DNA from: Pseudomonas phage PMG1
Direction: 5' to 3' (one strand)
Sequence record: NC_016765.1
Length of the DNA stretch: 54,024 bases
This document shows positions 3,572 to 11,008 of the stretch, in pieces. The first letter of the stretch is position 1. Every line of letters starts with the position of its first letter. A program made the translations under genes and the position numbers. Below the pieces are notes generated by a model, which saw only the letters and a program-made list of their open reading frames with translations, was not told where the DNA came from and ran no database searches.

Positions 3572-4462
3572 ATGACTCTGCGAAATCTTCCGGCAGCGCC
3601 GGAGGCTCGCCCGCGCTCGGGCGTCCAGTGCGACCTGGCGCCCAAAGCGCTAGATGCATGGCGTCCTGAGCTTCGAGCAGCTTCTGGCGATAACCCGGAC
3701 TCCACGATCACCATCTACGAGCCGATTGGCTACGACTGGTGGACCGGTGAAGGTGTCACGGCAAAACGCATTGCTGGCGCTCTGCGCTCCATCGGCAACG
3801 ATGTCGATGTGACCGTGAACATCAACAGCCCCGGCGGCGACGTATTCGAAGGCCTGGCCATTTACAACCTGCTGCGCGAGCACAAGGGCAAGGTCACGGT
3901 GAACATCATCGGCCTGGCTGCCTCTGCCGCCTCTTTCATCGCCATGGCGGGGGATGAAATCCGCATCGGCCGCGCCGCCTTCCTGATGATCCATAACGCC
4001 TGGCTGATCGCCATGGGTAATCGGAATGATCTCCGTGAGATAGCCGATTGGCTGGAGCCATTCGACATGACGCTGGCTGACATTTACGCACAGCGCACGG
4101 AAATCGACATCGACGACATCGTGAAACAGATGGACGCCGAGACCTGGATCGGCGGGCGCGAAGCCGTCGACAAAGGGTGGGCAGATGCCTTCCTGGAGTC
4201 CGACGAGATCTCCAGCGCTCCCAGCAACCGCAGCGAAGCCATCCTGGCCAAGCGCCGGATGGATGCCGCCCTGGCTCGCAGCGGAATGCCGCGAAGCCAG
4301 CGCAATGAACTCATCAACGACTTCAAGACCAGCATGCTTGGCGCTGCTGGCGGGGGTGGTGACACCCCGACCGATATGCCTGGCGCTGTCGCTCCTGACC
4401 TCTCCGCTGCACTACGGGCAGCACAAGACATCACCAAATTCCTCCAAGGAGAATCGCAATGA
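3572..4462 (+). CDS. prohead (head maturation) protease, ClpP/S14-like
   Basis: ClpP-fold motifs (NSPGGDVFEG..., GLAASAASFIAMAGDE), SD CAGGAG upstream; sits between portal and capsid as in HK97/D3. Confidence 0.8.
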   Translation: MTLRNLPAAPEARPRSGVQCDLAPKALDAWRPELRAASGDNPDSTITIYEPIGYDWWTGEGVTAKRIAGALRSIGNDVDVTVNINSPGGDVFEGLAIYNLLREHKGKVTVNIIGLAASAASFIAMAGDEIRIGRAAFLMIHNAWLIAMGNRNDLREIADWLEPFDMTLADIYAQRTEIDIDDIVKQMDAETWIGGREAVDKGWADAFLESDEISSAPSNRSEAILAKRRMDAALARSGMPRSQRNELINDFKTSMLGAAGGGGDTPTDMPGAVAPDLSAALRAAQDITKFLQGESQ

Positions 4463-5646
4463 GCGACTTCGAAAAACAAATCGGCGAACTGAACGCCAGC
4501 CTCAAGCAGGTCGGGGACCAAATCAAGTCCCAGGCCGAACAGGTAAACACCCAAATCGCCAATTTCGGCGAAATGAACAAGGAAACCCGCGCCAAGGTCG
4601 ACGAACTGCTGACTGCCCAGGGCGAACTGCAAGCACGACTGAGCGCCGCGGAACAAGCCATGCTGGCCAACGAGAAGCGTGACGGCGGCGAGGAAGCACC
4701 GAAGACCGCCGGCCAAATGGTCGCAGAGAGCCTGAAAGAGCAGGGTGTAACCAGCTCCCTGCGCGGCTCGCATCGCGTATCCATGCCGCGCTCGGCCATC
4801 ACCTCCATCGACGGCTCTGGCGGCGCCCTGGTGGCTCCTGATCGTCGCCCCGGTGTCGTTGCCGCTCCGCAGCGTCGACTGACCATCCGCGACCTGGTTG
4901 CGCCTGGCACCACTGAGTCGAACTCCGTCGAGTACGTCCGCGAGACCGGCTTCGTCAACAATGCCGCTCCTGTTTCGGAAGGCACCCAGAAGCCATACTC
5001 CGACCTGACCTTCGAACTGGAAAACGCGCCGGTTCGCACCATCGCACACCTGTTCAAGGCAAGTCGCCAGATCCTGGACGACGCTTCGGCCTTGCAGAGC
5101 TACATCGATGCGCGCGCTCGTTACGGCCTGATGCTGGTCGAAGAAGGTCAACTGCTCTACGGGAACGGGACCGGCGCCAATCTGCACGGCATCATTCCGC
5201 AGGCACAGGCCTACGCGCCGCCGAGTGGCGTAGTGGTAACCGCCGAGCAGCGAATCGACCGCATCCGCCTGGCGATCCTTCAGGCGCAACTGGCCGAGTT
5301 CCCGGCCAGCGGTATCGTGCTCAACCCCATCGACTGGGCGCTGATCGAGCTGACCAAGGACGCCGAGAACCGTTACATCATCGGCAGCCCGCAGAACGGC
5401 ACCACTCCGACCCTCTGGCGTCTGCCGGTGGTGGAAACCCAGGCCATCACTCAGGACGAGTTCCTGACCGGTGCGTTCTCTCTCGGCGCCCAGATCTTCG
5501 ACCGCATGGACATCGAGGTTCTGGTTTCCACCGAGAACGACAAGGACTTCGAGAACAACATGGTCACCATCCGCGCTGAGGAGCGGCTGGCCTTCGCGGT
5601 CTATCGCCCCGAGGCTTTCGTGACTGGTTCGCTGACCGCCAGCTAA
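4459..5646 (+). CDS. major capsid protein, HK97 fold with N-terminal coiled-coil delta domain
   Basis: 395 aa, strong SD AAGGAGA; coiled-coil N-terminus then HK97-like capsid body; followed by strong terminator. Confidence 0.85.
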   Translation: MSDFEKQIGELNASLKQVGDQIKSQAEQVNTQIANFGEMNKETRAKVDELLTAQGELQARLSAAEQAMLANEKRDGGEEAPKTAGQMVAESLKEQGVTSSLRGSHRVSMPRSAITSIDGSGGALVAPDRRPGVVAAPQRRLTIRDLVAPGTTESNSVEYVRETGFVNNAAPVSEGTQKPYSDLTFELENAPVRTIAHLFKASRQILDDASALQSYIDARARYGLMLVEEGQLLYGNGTGANLHGIIPQAQAYAPPSGVVVTAEQRIDRIRLAILQAQLAEFPASGIVLNPIDWALIELTKDAENRYIIGSPQNGTTPTLWRLPVVETQAITQDEFLTGAFSLGAQIFDRMDIEVLVSTENDKDFENNMVTIRAEERLAFAVYRPEAFVTGSLTAS

Positions 5647-5652
5647 CTGGAA

Positions 5653-5681
5653 GGGGCCGGTCTCCCGGCCCCTCTTTCTTT
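5653..5681 (+). terminator. rho-independent terminator after capsid gene
   Basis: GGGGCCGG-tctc-CCGGCCCC hairpin followed by TCTTTCTTT. Confidence 0.6.
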
Positions 5682-5690
5682 GAGGTGATT

Positions 5691-5978
5691 ATGTCTGACG
5701 TAATGATCAAGCCGGTTCGTTCCTACCTGGATGGCGGTCGTGTGAGAAAGGCTGGTGGTGATGCATACCTCGCATCCGAGTACCTGGCTCGCCAGTTGGT
5801 GGCGCGAGGCCTGTGCCAGATTGTGGAATCAGAGATCCCAAAGCCTGTGGCTGGCGAGTCGCTGTCTGCCTCGCAAGCGGCCCCAGCCTCACAGCAGAAG
5901 ACTGCGAACGAGTCCGAGAGTGGCGGAACTCCTCGCCGCAGAGGGCGGCCATCTGCACGAACACAACGTTCCGACTGA
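5691..5978 (+). CDS. hypothetical small protein (possibly shorter than the ORF)
   Basis: SD GAGGTGA then ATG; first ~45 aa look protein-like, C-terminal part is low complexity and overlaps the next gene out of frame. Confidence 0.3.
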   Translation: MSDVMIKPVRSYLDGGRVRKAGGDAYLASEYLARQLVARGLCQIVESEIPKPVAGESLSASQAAPASQQKTANESESGGTPRRRGRPSARTQRSD

Positions 5979-6409
5979 CTCCCTGGGCTGATGCGCTGTG
6001 GGCAATGGATAAAGTCTGGTGGGAGAGATACGCCGCCGAGGCTAAAGCAAACTTCTGCGGTGAGCTTCTGACACTCAGCGCCAATCCCTTCGGCATCAAA
6101 ACGGCACGCATTGAGCACTACAGGAACTCAGGCGGCGGCGCAGTTTCTTTGGCCATAGCCAGGGGCGCCAAGCGAATCATCCTTCTCGGCTACGACATGC
6201 AGAAAACTGGCGGGATGTCTCACTGGCATGGTGATCACCCCAGAGGGCTGGGTAGTGCAGGGAAGATATCCGAGTGGCCGGTAGAGTTCGAAAACCTGAA
6301 GCGCAAGAACCCTGGGATAGAAATCATCAATTGCACACGCGAAACGGCGCTTACCTGTTTCGCGCGTAGACCGCTGGAGGACGCGCTGAATGAGCCTGAT
6401 CCCGCTTGA
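5813..6409 (+). CDS. DUF115 / MptE-like (Maf-type) family protein
   Basis: GTG start; motifs VCLASGPSL, AICTNTTF, GGGAVSLAIARGAKRIILLGYDM resemble the DUF115/6-hydroxymethylpterin diphosphokinase MptE-like Rossmann family. Confidence 0.5.
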   Translation: MPDCGIRDPKACGWRVAVCLASGPSLTAEDCERVREWRNSSPQRAAICTNTTFRLTPWADALWAMDKVWWERYAAEAKANFCGELLTLSANPFGIKTARIEHYRNSGGGAVSLAIARGAKRIILLGYDMQKTGGMSHWHGDHPRGLGSAGKISEWPVEFENLKRKNPGIEIINCTRETALTCFARRPLEDALNEPDPA

Positions 6410-6710
6410 TACAGCAAAGTCCTTTCTTGATGTGATCCACGATTGGGATGACGCCAAGCTCCAGTTGCTGCTGGATGGAGCGGAGGACGAGGCCTGCCAG
6501 TTCATGTGGCGCCAGTCCCTTGATGGCCTTTGCAACTGCGAAGAGAGCAGTGAGGCTGTCAGTAGCGAACCGGGACTTCCGCCTAGCGTGGTCATCGGAG
6601 TGCTTCTTTTGCTTCAGGCCAGCTACCAGGCTGCTCCCGATGAAATCGCGACGCTGCGCAAGGCGGCCGAGGTGAAGCTGATGCCGTACCGATGCGGCTT
6701 GGGGGTTTGA
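6390..6710 (+). CDS. head-tail connector (gp6-like, Phage_connect_1)
   Basis: MSLIPLDTAKSFLDVIHDWDDAKLQLLLDGAEDEACQFM matches gp6-like connector N-termini. Confidence 0.7.
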   Translation: MSLIPLDTAKSFLDVIHDWDDAKLQLLLDGAEDEACQFMWRQSLDGLCNCEESSEAVSSEPGLPPSVVIGVLLLLQASYQAAPDEIATLRKAAEVKLMPYRCGLGV

Positions 6711-7067
6711 ATGCTGGCCTACCGTATGCGCCACCGCATTCAGTTTCAGCGGCAGGTCCACACACAAGACCCTGACACGGGAGAAGAGACGACGACCTGG
6801 GAGACGGTTCTGTTCTCCGGTCACGCTGACCTGCCCGCAGAGGTTCTGACTGGGCCAGGTCGCGAGTTCATCGCCGCAGACGCTACGCAGGCAGAGACCA
6901 CTGCCAGGATCAACTGTCGGTGGTTCCCCGTTGAGCGGTTGGAACTGTACACCTGGCGGGCCATCTGGGATGGCCGGGTCTACAACATCACCAGCGCGGA
7001 AACCGATGTCACAGCTCGGCGTGAATGGAGACTGCGCTGCTCTGATGGATTGACGGACGGTCGGTAA
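6711..7067 (+). CDS. head-tail adaptor / head-tail joining protein
   Basis: 118 aa; RHRIQFQR...TTWETV...VWA pattern of SPP1 gp16/HK97 gp7-like adaptors; ATG immediately after connector stop. Confidence 0.65.
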   Translation: MLAYRMRHRIQFQRQVHTQDPDTGEETTTWETVLFSGHADLPAEVLTGPGREFIAADATQAETTARINCRWFPVERLELYTWRAIWDGRVYNITSAETDVTARREWRLRCSDGLTDGR

Positions 7068-7184
7068 CCCTTTAGCCCGTAAGGGCGCTCAACACGCAGC
7101 TAGGCCCGTACAGCCGAACGGCGGATGTCCGCTCATCCGTCCGCCCCGCTGCGTTTCTATTCGTCTGATGAGCGAGGTAACAAC

Positions 7185-7733
7185 ATGAGCATGACCAAAT
7201 GGCAAGAGGCCCAGAAGGTTGCCCGTGAATTCTCCAAGCAGTCAGTTCTGTACTGCGTCAGGTTTTCTCACGGGCTAATGAAGGTTGGGCGAACCAAGAA
7301 CATGAGATCAAGGCTGAATGCTTTGACTGCTCACGGTGTGGTTACACCTCTGATTGAGGAGTTGATTGTTCAGCCTGTTGAAAACTGTGCCGCTGATGCC
7401 GAACGGCTGGCCATAAATTCGTTCTCTGCGATGACTGAGCAGCATGGGCCAGAGGTGTTTTCGTGCCTGACGGCGTGTGTGGTAAGAAAAGTCCTAGCAT
7501 GTGCGGCAAGTGAGGCGAAGGCCGCTCGCGCTCCAGTCGAGTCGAGCGACGAAAGCTTCGACGAGATGGCCAGATCCAGCAATATGTATGCGGCCCTCAT
7601 CCATCTGGCAGTAGACAGAGCGAGACGCAGCGGGCTACATGAAAGGGCCAACGAGCTTGAGGAGATAATCAAGAACGCTCCGCCCGGTATGCTGAACGAG
7701 ATCGCAAGAAATCTCTGCCACCAGGCAACCTAA
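7185..7733 (+). CDS. T5orf172 (MUG113, GIY-YIG-like) domain protein; moron
   Basis: LYCVRFSHGLMKVGRTKNMRSRLNAL...HGPEVF matches T5orf172 signature; lower GC than flanks; own SD and own downstream terminator. Confidence 0.6.
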   Translation: MSMTKWQEAQKVAREFSKQSVLYCVRFSHGLMKVGRTKNMRSRLNALTAHGVVTPLIEELIVQPVENCAADAERLAINSFSAMTEQHGPEVFSCLTACVVRKVLACAASEAKAARAPVESSDESFDEMARSSNMYAALIHLAVDRARRSGLHERANELEEIIKNAPPGMLNEIARNLCHQAT

Positions 7734-7752
7734 CCCACGCCACCCAACGGAA

Positions 7753-7781
7753 AGCCCGCCCTGCGCGGGCTTCGTCGTTTC
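7753..7781 (+). terminator. rho-independent terminator after T5orf172 gene
   Basis: AGCCCGC-cctg-GCGGGCT hairpin followed by TCGTCGTTTCT. Confidence 0.55.
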
Positions 7782-7796
7782 TGGAGTAGAGAAATC

Positions 7797-8624
7797 TTGT
7801 TCATCCGCGGAATGCTTGGCCTTGGTGACAATATCTACGCCCGCGCGTTCGTGAAGAAGCACCTTGGAGCCTATCTCGAAACGCCGTGGCCCCAGCTCTA
7901 TGCAGACATCGATGTGAAATGCGTGCGTCCGAGCACGCAGCTCCGCACGCAAGCGAAGAACGTCCAGCGCCCGGCGCAGTGGCATAAGCCATTCGGTGGC
8001 GGCCAGCTCCGAATCGCCTACGGCCAGATGCCGATCATCCAGGGCTTGCGCCAAGCGTTCCGCTGCGAACCCGGCGAGTTCGACCTGCCGGACTTCAGGC
8101 CTTCGCCGGTTGAGGGCCGGTATGTGCTGGTACGGCCTGCAACGGTTCGCGCTGAGTGGCGCGCAGACACGCGCAACCCACTTCCTGAGTACATCGCAAG
8201 AGCTGCCGCAGAGATGCGCCGCAGGGGCTGGAAAGTGGTTTCCGTGGCGGACTTGGAGCCGGGTAAGGAATGGGCGATCGATCCACTTTCTCCGGCAGAC
8301 ATCAAGTTCCATAAGGGTGAACTGCCGGTTGAGAAATTACTTGCCCTTTTGCAATACGCCGACGCAGTGATTGGCGGCATTGGCTGGATCGTGCCGGCCG
8401 CCATCGCCGCAAAGCGGCCGGCCTGGATCATCTGTGGCGGGCAGGGCGGCTACAACTCGCCGGAACACATCACCGACAAATGCATGGACCTGTCCCGCAT
8501 CACATTCGCGGTTCCCGACAGGTTCTGCCGCTGCACGTTGAAACAGCACAACTGTGACAAAAGGATCGCCGATCATGACGCACGCTTTGCCGCCTGGGCT
8601 GACCGACTGCCTGCTCTGGTCTGA
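7797..8624 (+). CDS. GT9-like (heptosyltransferase-fold, GT-B) glycosyltransferase
   Basis: N-terminal MLGLGDNIYARAF (GT9 GDxx motif), C-terminal LLALLQYADAVIGGIGWIVPAAIAAKRPAWIICGGQGG resembling the GT9 donor-binding region; alternative ATG start at 7812. Confidence 0.5.
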   Translation: MFIRGMLGLGDNIYARAFVKKHLGAYLETPWPQLYADIDVKCVRPSTQLRTQAKNVQRPAQWHKPFGGGQLRIAYGQMPIIQGLRQAFRCEPGEFDLPDFRPSPVEGRYVLVRPATVRAEWRADTRNPLPEYIARAAAEMRRRGWKVVSVADLEPGKEWAIDPLSPADIKFHKGELPVEKLLALLQYADAVIGGIGWIVPAAIAAKRPAWIICGGQGGYNSPEHITDKCMDLSRITFAVPDRFCRCTLKQHNCDKRIADHDARFAAWADRLPALV

Positions 8625-9192
8625 AGAGCTTGGCATGGGCTTCCACCCGCGCCCTCCAATGGACTATAGCGGGCCGTATTTCGAGAAGTATCAGGTGCTT
8701 GACGCTACCCCGATGGGCGCTGCGCTGACTCAGTGCCGCATCGATCTGGTGCGCCGTCACTTTGCCGGACAGGTGGTAGATATCGGTATCGGCGGAGGCC
8801 GTTTCGTCACCGAGTCCGGCGCCATGGGCTTTGACGTGAATCCGGAAGCGGTGGCTTGGCTGAAGGCGCAGGAGCTCTACTACGACCCGTACCAGCACCA
8901 CGCAGAGGCCGTGACCTGCTGGGACAGCCTGGAGCACATTCCCGAGCCGGAGAAACTGCTGGACCACGTTGGCGAGTGGCTGTTCGTGTCGATGCCGATT
9001 TATAAGGATCAGGCTGACTGCCTGTCCTCCAAGCACTACAAGCCGGGTGAGCATATCTGGTACCACACGATGCACGGTTTGATCGGATGGTGCGAGCGTC
9101 AAGGTTTCGAATGTGTCGAGCTAAACGACCAGGAGTCGAAACTTGGCCGAGAAGGCATCACCAGCTTTGCGTTCCGGAGAGTCCATGGCTGA
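8575..9192 (+). CDS. class I SAM-dependent methyltransferase
   Basis: motif I VVDIGIGGGRF and post-I acidic motif; WDSLEHIPEPEKLL; SD AAAGGA upstream of ATG 8575 (alternative ATG 8635). Confidence 0.65.
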   Translation: MTHALPPGLTDCLLWSEELGMGFHPRPPMDYSGPYFEKYQVLDATPMGAALTQCRIDLVRRHFAGQVVDIGIGGGRFVTESGAMGFDVNPEAVAWLKAQELYYDPYQHHAEAVTCWDSLEHIPEPEKLLDHVGEWLFVSMPIYKDQADCLSSKHYKPGEHIWYHTMHGLIGWCERQGFECVELNDQESKLGREGITSFAFRRVHG

Positions 9193-9679
9193 TACCGTTG
9201 AGTTCAGCATCACCGGTCTAGATTCACTGCTTGGCAAACTGGACTCGGTTACGGATGACGTGAAGCGGAGGGGCGGACGAGCCGCGTTACGTAAGGCCGC
9301 AATGATCGTGGTTCAGGCAGCGAAGCAGGGTGCGGAGAAAGTCGACGACCCAGGAACCGGCAGGAGCATTTCCGACAATATCGCGTTGCGCTGGAACGGT
9401 CGTCTGTTCAAACGCACGGGCGACTTAGGGTTCAGAATTGGCGTTCTGCATGGTGCCGTTCTTCCCAAGAAAGGGGAGCGCTCGGACAAGACTGCGAATG
9501 CCCCGACGCCGCACTGGAGACTTCTTGAGTTCGGGACAGAAGACATGCGGGCTCAGCCTTTCATGCGAAGCGCTCTGGCAGACAACATCGCAGAAGTCAC
9601 AAGCACTTTCGTATCTGAATACGAGAAAGGCATCGATAGGGCCATCAAGCGCGCAGCCAAGAAGGCTGCTCAGGGGTGA
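9185..9679 (+). CDS. HK97 gp10-family tail component
   Basis: MADTVEFSITGLDSLLGKLD N-terminus typical of HK97 gp10-like proteins; SD GGAGAG. Confidence 0.65.
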   Translation: MADTVEFSITGLDSLLGKLDSVTDDVKRRGGRAALRKAAMIVVQAAKQGAEKVDDPGTGRSISDNIALRWNGRLFKRTGDLGFRIGVLHGAVLPKKGERSDKTANAPTPHWRLLEFGTEDMRAQPFMRSALADNIAEVTSTFVSEYEKGIDRAIKRAAKKAAQG

Positions 9680-9681
9680 GT

Positions 9682-10047
9682 ATGTACCCGCCAATCTTTA
9701 AGGTCTGTTCAAGTAGCCCCGCTGTTACCGCGATCCTTGGCGCGTCCCCGCTGAGGATGTACCAGTTTGGCCTGGCCCCCCAACTCGTCGTCAAACCGTA
9801 TGCAACATGGCAGACCATATCGGGGTCGCCGGAGAACTACCTGTGGGGCCGCCCTGACGCCGATGGTTTCACCATCCAGGTGGACATTTTCTCAGCCACC
9901 GCTGCGGAGGCCAGAGATGCAGCAAAGGCCATCAGGGACGCAATTGAGCTTTCAGCTTATGTAGTCCGCTGGGGAGGGGAGTCTGTTGACCCTGATACCA
10001 AGACCTACCGAGTCAGCTTTGACGTCGACTGGATAGTCCAGCGATAG
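9682..10047 (+). CDS. tail completion/terminator-like protein (DUF3168-like)
   Basis: 122 aa immediately upstream of major tail gene; DUF3168-like pattern (MYPPIF...). Confidence 0.5.
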
Positions 10048-10064
10048 ACCAACCAATACCGACC

Positions 10065-10089
10065 AACCCGCCTTGAGCGGGTTTTTGCT
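10065..10089 (+). terminator. rho-independent terminator/attenuator before major tail gene
   Basis: AACCCGC-cttga-GCGGGTT followed by TTTTGCTT. Confidence 0.5.
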
Positions 10090-10117
10090 TCAAGAAGCCC
10101 GCCACAGGAGAAACACA

Positions 10118-10639
10118 ATGGCAATTTTGGCTCAAGGAACCCAGATCTATGCCCTGGTTCCGTCCAGAGATTCTAGCGGCAGCCCGACTGGTGATTACGA
10201 AGTCATGGAGGTCGAGTGCGCTACCGCGTTCAACCCCGGTGGCAACCCTGCCGACCAGATCGAAACCACATGCCTTAGCGAAACTGTTCGGCGCTACCTG
10301 CGCGGCCTGCGCACGCCGGGACAGGCGTCGCTGACCCTCAACGCTGACCCGCGCAACAGTTCCCATATCCGCCTCTACCAACTGTCCGAGTCCGACGACC
10401 AGATCGATCAGGACATCGCTTTCGCGGTTGGCTGGTCTGACGGTATTGGCGTTGCACCAACCGAGGCACAGGACAGCAACGGTGATTGGGATTTCGTTCT
10501 TCCGCCGACGCGCACCTGGTTCGTCTTCCGCGGCTATGTGAGCGACTTCCCGTTCGATTTTGCAGCCAACGCTGTGGTGACCTCTACCGCAACCATTCAG
10601 CGCTCCGGCGGTTCCGCCTGGATTCGCAAATCCGCTTAA
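10118..10639 (+). CDS. major tail protein
   Basis: 173 aa, SD CAGGAG, ATG 10118; position between tail completion genes and G/GT chaperones. Confidence 0.6.
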
Positions 10640-10648
10640 GGAGTGGTC

Positions 10649-11008
10649 ATGCATCTGTCGATTGATTCGCTTAAAGAAGCTGGCGCCTTCACTGGGGCTC
10701 CTATCGAGAAAGAGATCACCTGGAAACAGGGCGATAAGGAACTGACTGCAACCGTGTACGTCCGGCCCTTGTCGTACAGCACAGCTGTTTCTGACCTTCT
10801 GGCCATGAATGGCAAGGTGGATGGCGTAGCGGGTCGGATAGCCGCGTCAATCGTGGATGAAGAGGGTAAGCCGGTATTCACGCCGGCAGATATCACCGGC
10901 GAGGCCGATCCCGGTCGCGGCGCGCTGGATGGAAACCTGACCATCGCCCTGCTCACCGTGATCGCCGAGGTGAACAACCTGGGAAAGACGACCAGCTCAG
11001 CGAACTAG
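10649..11008 (+). CDS. tail assembly chaperone (gpG-like)
   Basis: 119 aa; SD AAGGAG; precedes tape measure; contains slippery heptamer near 3' end. Confidence 0.6.
   Translation: MHLSIDSLKEAGAFTGAPIEKEITWKQGDKELTATVYVRPLSYSTAVSDLLAMNGKVDGVAGRIAASIVDEEGKPVFTPADITGEADPGRGALDGNLTIALLTVIAEVNNLGKTTSSAN

Follow-up and report, generated by a model that had tools for sequence, protein, structure and literature searches.

A mobile late-gene cassette of three enzyme-like proteins in Pseudomonas phage PMG1, with a candidate −1 frameshift leading into orf7 and a possible role in virion glycosylation

The genome of Pseudomonas phage PMG1 (NC_016765.1), of which the whole 54,024-nucleotide stretch is the window analysed here, carries three enzyme-like genes among its structural genes: orf7, orf12 and orf13, encoding a DUF115/Maf-like protein, a GT-B glycosyltransferase-like protein and a class I S-adenosylmethionine (SAM)-dependent methyltransferase. 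PMG1 is a temperate phage of the D3 type. Positions 5000–10000 share 94% nucleotide identity with D3 over 89% of their length, and the genes come in the order annotated for D3: terminase, portal, protease, major capsid protein, orf6.5, orf7, the head-tail adaptor Ad1, the head closure protein Hc1, a variable open reading frame (ORF), orf12, orf13, the HK97-gp10-like Neck1 gene, the tail terminator and the major tail protein (Table 1). An earlier sequence-only reading of this DNA had picked out three enzyme-like ORFs on the plus strand within 5691–9192; they are there, with two gene boundaries now corrected. It had also described the flanks (major capsid protein, Ad1, Hc1 and the HK97-gp10-like gene) and the position in the late structural operon as we find them, and its fold and family calls for all three proteins are borne out by profile and fold searches. 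Absent from it were a −1 frameshift link between orf6.5 and orf7, the natural orf7–orf12 fusions and the wide distribution of the cassette. The computation establishes the folds and families, the conservation of the cassette, its fusions, its late-operon position and the frameshift signature. How, then, is orf7 translated, and what might the three enzymes act on?

Members of the orf7 family are proteins of about 190–200 residues with the invariant motifs ASGPSL, NSG, G-D-Q and H...H, and the invariant polar or motif residues are S22, G23, P24, S25, D30, N50, D66, N105, D128, Q130, H137, H142 and R176. Invariant polar residues, in this family as in that of orf12, are as expected of enzymes. The PMG1 protein matches PF01973 (MptE-like/DUF115) with an E-value of 0.017 and 15.3 bits, short of the gathering cut-off of 34.6; at E ≤ 0.1 the profile is matched by 30 of 34 family members (best 1.1e-6), all under the gathering score. 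The fold is the Rossmann-like fold of Maf/MptE with the N-terminal GxGPS loop present, and PHROGs labels the protein a sialyltransferase. Public records (D3 RefSeq, PP9W2, P7869, D14O) start orf7 46–64 codons too late, from 5951 or 6005, and such annotations (e.g. L001 5951–6409, L004 2004–2408) cut off the invariant ASGPSL nucleotide-binding loop, likely because an ordinary start codon is absent.

The product of orf12 has a predicted GT-B fold, and its closest structures are GT9 enzymes. By single sequence and by profile it has no family match in Pfam, NCBIfam or the PDB; the homologue from jumbo phage Eowyn scores an E-value of only 0.069 against PF01075 (GT9). In an hhalign comparison with WaaC, WaaF and WaaU of E. 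coli K-12 the C-terminal domain alone was aligned, and weakly (E 0.1). Invariant in the family are G10, D11, R126, E158, C244, C246, H251 and C253. The pair G10-D11 closes strand 1, as does the G12-D13 pair that WaaC, WaaF and WaaU keep without change; this is an argument from pattern and not from alignment. The four residues C244, C246, H251 and C253 (8526–8558; CxC...H.C), invariant in 34 homologues, fall in a lower-confidence loop of the model and may form a metal site; this Cys3-His cluster may parallel the C-terminal iron finger of TibC.

The protein encoded by orf13 matches Methyltransf_23 with an E-value of 1.7e-10 and 41.3 bits (gathering cut-off 27), its family profile matches UbiG at 7e-4, motif I is present as VVDIGIGGG, and D69, G71, G73 and G75 are invariant. 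By these matches it is nearest to UbiG-type O-methyltransferases. Could the enzymes glycosylate and methylate phage DNA as a protection against restriction? This was proposed in a prophage survey (PMC10449497), phage glycosyltransferases that take part in DNA hypermodification are known, and in one prophage the cassette adjoins an HNH-TerS-TerL block. We nevertheless hold a DNA target to be very improbable: orf13 matched only Methyltransf_23 and UbiG and no DNA-methylase family (a true N6_N4_Mtase is, by contrast, encoded elsewhere in prophage L099), no hydroxymethylase, TET-like or other base-activating enzyme is annotated in D3, and among the matches there is no known DNA-acting member of the GT9 or Maf fold.

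The three genes travel together. In a viral sample of 84 loci (four phage records and the 80 best of 471 viral-contig matches) the trio is complete in all 82 loci that cover the region. A bacterial sample, drawn from contigs of one genome per species, gave 27 prophage loci in Alpha-, Beta- and Gammaproteobacteria, with Pseudomonas, Azorhizophilus, Cellvibrio, Alcanivorax, Bordetella, Castellaniella, Citrobacter, Buttiauxella, Mixta, Bradyrhizobium, Mesorhizobium and Phenylobacterium among the hosts; here orf12 has orf13 as its neighbour in 25 loci, and 23 loci have an orf7 that is either adjacent or fused. Five lineages have orf7 and orf12 joined in one reading frame. An exhaustive profile search found orf12 relatives in 817 clusters at 50% identity, and the top 150 of these include about ten DUF115 fusions as well as fusions to SAM methyltransferase, LicD and genuine PF01075 GT9 domains. 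Natural fusions of this kind are as expected of enzymes acting on one glycan. Two giant relatives, P0356 (1032 residues) and P0335 (1214 residues), are multi-domain proteins: one giant combines a true GT9 domain, an intein with LAGLIDADG and an orf12-like domain, and another carries three orf12-like stretches along with a DUF115 and a GT9 domain.

The surroundings of the cassette vary. The enzymes had been placed in the head-tail joining module, which does not hold generally, since in most lineages the cassette lies directly 3' of the capsid gene. In PAJU2, whose capsid gene has no detectable similarity to that of D3, the three genes form an unbroken run of overlapping ORFs between Hc1 and Neck1; in an enterobacterial (Buttiauxella) prophage they lie between holin-endolysin genes and HNH-TerS-TerL-portal; in Eowyn the trio stands on its own. 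Only in D3-type phages do Ad1 and Hc1 split the cassette between orf7 and orf12. Constant across the contexts examined is a place among late genes on the same strand. With such variable placement the cassette is not tied to the neck module, and on the sequence evidence the trio is one mobile late-gene cassette.

How orf7 is expressed in D3-type phages is a question of its own. The gene lies in the −1 frame of orf6.5, with an overlap of 166 nucleotides (nt). Relatives of orf6.5 match PF23843 (DUF7210) at an E-value of 6e-7; the N-terminal 45 or so residues are DUF7210-like, and the C-terminal tail is an alternative-frame reading of the 5' end of orf7. Within the overlap, 5' of the essential part of the −1 ORF and in zero-frame phase, PMG1 has a heptamer of the X XXY YYZ type, C CCA AAG. 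It is fixed 36 nt 5' of the ASGPSL motif in PMG1 and all Pseudomonas-type relatives, and it is unchanged in 54 distinct D3-type sequences in which the flanks vary. Substitutions in these 54 sequences fall on codon position 3 of the orf6.5 frame only 5' of position 5837 and take the pattern of the orf7 frame after the site. At the same site Cellvibrio has A AAA AAC and Castellaniella C CCT TTG, two metagenome-assembled genomes have G GGA AAA nine nt further upstream, and four lineages keep only the C CCN proline site. Nine of 13 lineages have an in-phase heptamer, and its sequence takes four different forms; the background rate of in-phase X XXY YYZ heptamers, taken from long ORFs in the same loci, is 0.26% of codons. 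For nine of 13 lineages with a heptamer in the short permitted window this gives P ≈ 5e-9 if lineages are taken as independent, which they are not. Fourteen related loci lack any ATG, GTG or TTG from the upstream stop of the orf7 frame to ASGPSL, and in some of them the open stretch runs for only 12–18 codons. The serine codons of the motif alternate between AGC and TCC, which means that ASGPSL is under selection at the protein level. Cassettes that lack orf6.5 (the PAJU2 type and the enterobacterial ones) have an ATG 21–42 nt 5' of the motif and no heptamer. A 6-bp stem, GCUGGC/GCCAGC, begins 6 nt 3' of the heptamer; it is kept in 13 of 15 sequences and imperfect in PMG1, with a folding z-score of −1.7.

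Two points weigh on the other side: this stem has no covariation, and in PMG1 a GTG at 5813 could initiate orf7 alone and give a protein of 198 residues, so that two routes of orf7 expression are possible in this phage. Is orf7 then simply initiated at that GTG, the heptamer being kept because both frames encode Pro-Lys there? A GAGG stands upstream of the GTG, a GTG or TTG is found at −60 from the motif in all D3-type sequences, and the PAJU2-type and enterobacterial cassettes have stand-alone orf7 genes started by ATG. The GAGG, however, is only 3 nt from the GTG, short for a Shine-Dalgarno-like sequence; the swap between GTG and TTG is synonymous in the orf6.5 frame; substitutions within 5811–5840 still favour position 3 of that frame; and four loci whose orf7 is 82–87% identical (L056, L065, L073 and L078) have no start codon at all, yet have CCCAAAG. 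We therefore regard plain initiation at the GTG as a doubtful account, and production of orf7 by a programmed −1 frameshift from orf6.5 as the probable one. The predicted product joins 5691–5843 to 5843–6409 in a protein of 239 residues, which would begin with the first 51 residues of gp6.5, ending …EIPK, and continue with ACGWRVAVCLASGPSL…. Such a frameshift would also explain why public orf7 annotations from 5951 or 6005 come without the nucleotide-binding loop. Separately, the conserved SSASPAAPAS tail of orf6.5 was considered as an O-glycosylation acceptor and rejected, because it is a +1-frame reading of the invariant C(I/L)ASGPSLT of orf7 and its substitutions follow the orf7 frame.

Table 1. 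Features of the orf7-orf12-orf13 region of phage PMG1 (positions in the window)
Feature	Position	Strand	Basis or remark
Major capsid protein gene	4459-5646		
Terminator-like hairpin directly 3' of the major capsid gene	5652..5673	+	Consensus scan: 9-bp stem, 8 G-C pairs, T-rich tail
orf6.5, zero-frame product, 95 residues	5691..5978	+	phrog_7993, E 4e-62
Candidate −1 slippery heptamer C CCA AAG, in phase with orf6.5	5837..5843	+	
orf7 frame, DUF115/Maf-like transferase	5813..6409	+	Family and fold
Head-tail adaptor Ad1	6390-6710	+	Structural gene
Head closure Hc1	6711-7067	+	Structural gene
Variable moron slot: 182-residue ORF and terminator-like hairpin 7752-7772	7185..7772	+	
orf12, GT-B glycosyltransferase-like, GT9 fold, 275 residues, TTG start	7797..8624	+	
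orf13, class I SAM-dependent methyltransferase, UbiG-like	8575..9192	+	50-nt overlap with orf12, 8-nt overlap with the Neck1 gene
HK97-gp10-like / Neck1 tail-completion gene, downstream cluster boundary	9185..9679	+	

Around the enzymes lie several smaller features. The hairpin behind the capsid gene is probably an attenuator ahead of the cassette. A second strong terminator-like hairpin (10065–10083) stands just 5' of the major tail protein gene, and the placement of the two fits attenuators that tune the ratios of structural proteins. A consensus scan found no sigma-70-like promoter in 4400–10700, the surroundings of the moron ORF included. The slot between Hc1 and orf12 is empty in PP9W2; in D3 it contains a KilA-N gene, in P7869 an anti-CRISPR gene. 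In PMG1 it had been called a T5orf172 moron: the slot is variable and has its own hairpin, and the ORF is moron-like, but the family assignment is not secured, as the match of the ORF at 7185–7733 (E 0.002, 19.0 bits) stays under the Pfam gathering cut-off of 20. The first 60 or so nt of the slot are common to PMG1 and D3 despite different cargo, and the conserved leader 5' of it (7093–7170) gives a sub-threshold match to the Rfam int-alpA RNA (23.8 bits, E 0.078; the gathering score is 35.8); no Rfam family reached its gathering score in 5600–9300. PADLOC returned no match for any of the five ORFs tested, the moron ORF among them. Some D3-type phages have a second small variable slot between orf12 and orf13, with an ORF of about 61 residues or an insert of 180–350 nt (L003 5016–5201, L045, L058–L061, L073). 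Elsewhere in the window, a low-GC island at 20500–24500 (0.42–0.52, against about 0.58 elsewhere) occupies the position of the D3 serotype-conversion locus (iap, O-antigen acetylase, wzy-beta).

What would such a cassette act on? Glycosylation and methylation directed at the virion, as the sequence-only reading had it, is what we infer as the best reading, and the late host-envelope alternative it also raised is the weaker one. Under the model we propose, orf7, orf12 and orf13 would form one late-expressed glycan-building cassette, in which two glycosyl-transfer steps, by the Maf/DUF115-like enzyme and by the GT9-fold GT-B enzyme, and one SAM-dependent O-methylation would attach a small methylated glycan to some component of the progeny virion, in the cytoplasm and during assembly. 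In D3-type phages most ribosomes on orf6.5 would make the 95-residue gp6.5 alone, and a fraction would slip −1 at C CCA AAG and yield a DUF7210-Maf-like fusion; the shared DUF7210 domain probably tethers or targets the gp7 enzyme. The sugar donors would be host metabolites: no nucleotide-sugar synthesis genes are annotated in D3, so they would have to come from the host. Catalytic activity, donors, acceptor and the efficiency of the frameshift are all inferred parts of this model, which we judge, taken as a whole, to be evenly balanced between right and wrong.

Several observations speak for a virion target. The nearest solved structures to the two transferases include the cytoplasmic protein O-glycosyltransferases Maf and TibC, and in D3-type phages the predicted enzyme would be joined to a domain whose coding sequence directly follows the capsid gene. 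The late-gene setting in each context examined and, for most lineages, the place next to the capsid gene point the same way. The PAJU2 record names its orf7 homologue, ORF010, 'structural protein', a name given there to four ORFs only, the others being capsid, tail-tube and tail-fibre, and every predicted function in the record carries the prefix 'putative'. The label serves as a lead only, and the same label on the Eowyn homologue was possibly copied from PAJU2.

The following points weigh against the model. The orf7 fold is also that of pyrophosphokinases. All 34 orf12 members fail to match PF01075 even at an E-value of 10, and D261, T262, G263 and H266 of WaaC, from the D-T-G...H motif invariant in WaaC, WaaF and WaaU, correspond in the weak alignment to I195, G196, W197 and P200 of orf12. 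With no sequence match and this motif replaced, orf12 is GT9 in fold and not a member by sequence, its donor sugar is not readable from the sequence, and the earlier description of it as GT9-like stands for the fold and falls for the sequence. The cassette accompanies at least three unrelated capsid types, so a single conserved acceptor is not obvious, and the capsid and tail-tube proteins of cassette-bearing phages have no evident shared Ser/Thr-rich C-terminal tail or motif. The D3 capsid cryo-electron microscopy paper (virion vertex map at 2.7 Å) is silent on glycosylation, modification or extra density, and the searched literature holds no experiment showing a glycan on a D3-type virion protein. 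Nor did it yield a functional study of the cassette enzymes; the sequence-only reading had said as much of the trio.

Might gp7 instead belong chiefly to the virion itself, as a decoration, neck or ejected protein that has kept an enzyme-like fold and, if catalytic, would act in the next host? The PAJU2 label, with the reservation just given, and the predicted fusion to a domain encoded right behind the capsid gene would suit this as well. Yet the gp7 family keeps a full set of invariant polar residues in its nucleotide-binding motifs and is fused to a second transferase in five lineages, the D3 capsid has no reported decoration protein, and PmgO, its homologue in phage P1, goes unmentioned in the main text of the P1 virion-proteome paper. 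We consider this role quite improbable.

The other alternative keeps the enzymes and moves the acceptor: the cassette would modify a host glycoconjugate (the lipopolysaccharide (LPS) core, another envelope glycan or a protein of the pilin or flagellin type) late in infection or in lysogens. This might, for instance, prevent the binding of progeny to debris or shut out other phages. The usual substrate of GT9 enzymes is the LPS inner core, O-antigen conversion by D3 is known, and the survey cited above (PMC10449497) proposed O-antigen modification for the GT9 and methyltransferase pair. The conversion genes of D3 (iap, the O-acetylase and wzy-beta), however, sit in a separate low-GC locus, whereas the cassette matches the structural operon in GC content, overlaps with structural genes and has no sigma-70-like promoter in the scanned interval. 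A few minutes of LPS synthesis before lysis would hardly suffice to renew the outer membrane, and the GT9 donor motif is not kept in orf12. A host target, with either purpose, therefore seems improbable, and modification of the virion remains the reading we prefer.

What would follow if it were true? Going by the searched literature, it would be the first virion-glycosylation system for phages with Gram-negative hosts. It would also be a common one, as the orf12 family occurs in prophages of P. aeruginosa, Bordetella and enterobacteria and also in a jumbo phage. It could also be relevant to phage therapy of P. aeruginosa, as the glycan coats of mycobacteriophages alter antibody recognition. 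A fuller version of the idea is a widespread O-glycosylation of the virions of temperate phages of Gram-negative bacteria, in which a capsid-tethered DUF7210-Maf-like fusion, the GT9-fold transferase and the methyltransferase would build a methyl-capped glycan from donors of the host's inner-core type such as CMP-Kdo or ADP-heptose, giving a host-like sugar coat; in all these particulars we think it unlikely. The frameshift, if true, would add an enzyme to the short list of recoded proteins in phage late operons. D3 has tractable genetics, and its capsid structure is solved. The pairing of a GT9 protein with a methyltransferase is already noticed in prophage surveys, where it was guessed to modify DNA or O-antigen; the unity and breadth of the three-gene cassette, its natural fusions, the link to P1 PmgO and, above all, the recoding signal appear to be new.

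How do these elements compare with known systems? With the lambda G/GT tail chaperone and T7 10A/10B, orf6.5/orf7 has in common an X XXY YYZ heptamer in the overlap and, as predicted here, a short abundant and a longer minor product with the same N-terminus. Unlike in those cases, the extension would be an enzyme domain and not a structural or chaperone one, and the site comes just after the capsid gene. Compared with the Maf flagellin glycosyltransferases (DUF115/PF01973, structure 5mu5; Maf has 632 residues), gp7 corresponds to the catalytic core of about 190 residues and lacks the flanking Maf domains. Next to the GT9 enzymes WaaC and WaaF and the protein O-heptosyltransferase TibC, gp12 is 45–100 residues shorter and has no PF01075 match.

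A closer relative of orf7 is found in phage P1. PmgO of P1 (HdmB of P7) is a true gp7 homologue, with 33% identity over 90% of the protein and an E-value of 1e-23. As with orf6.5 and orf7, a small ORF, pmgN (51 residues), overlaps the 5' end of pmgO, by about 59 nt (pmgN-pmgO-pmgP at L117 3847–5130), but pmgO is in the +1 frame of pmgN whereas orf7 is in the −1 frame of orf6.5. P1 also differs in having two DUF115 paralogues (PmgO and PmgP), a different putative glycosyltransferase (PmgQ) and neither orf12 nor orf13, and its pmg operon is under a C1-controlled promoter. PmgP was considered as a counterpart of the methyltransferase and rejected, being the second DUF115 paralogue. An in-frame deletion of pmgO has no plaque phenotype, and the gene is not among the five essential pmg genes; this dispensability fits an accessory modification.

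The precedent for the proposed role comes from the mycobacteriophages. In Che8 and other cluster F1 phages, according to the passages of PMC11256854 and PMC12582341 that describe Freeman et al. 2023, glycosyltransferases of the phage act on its own capsid proteins, the sugars coming from the host, as an accessory function. The cassette would be a Gram-negative counterpart. The mycobacteriophage hosts are actinobacteria and the genes lie near the right genome end, whereas the cassette combines a Maf-like protein, a GT9-fold protein and a methyltransferase in the late operon of phages that infect proteobacteria.

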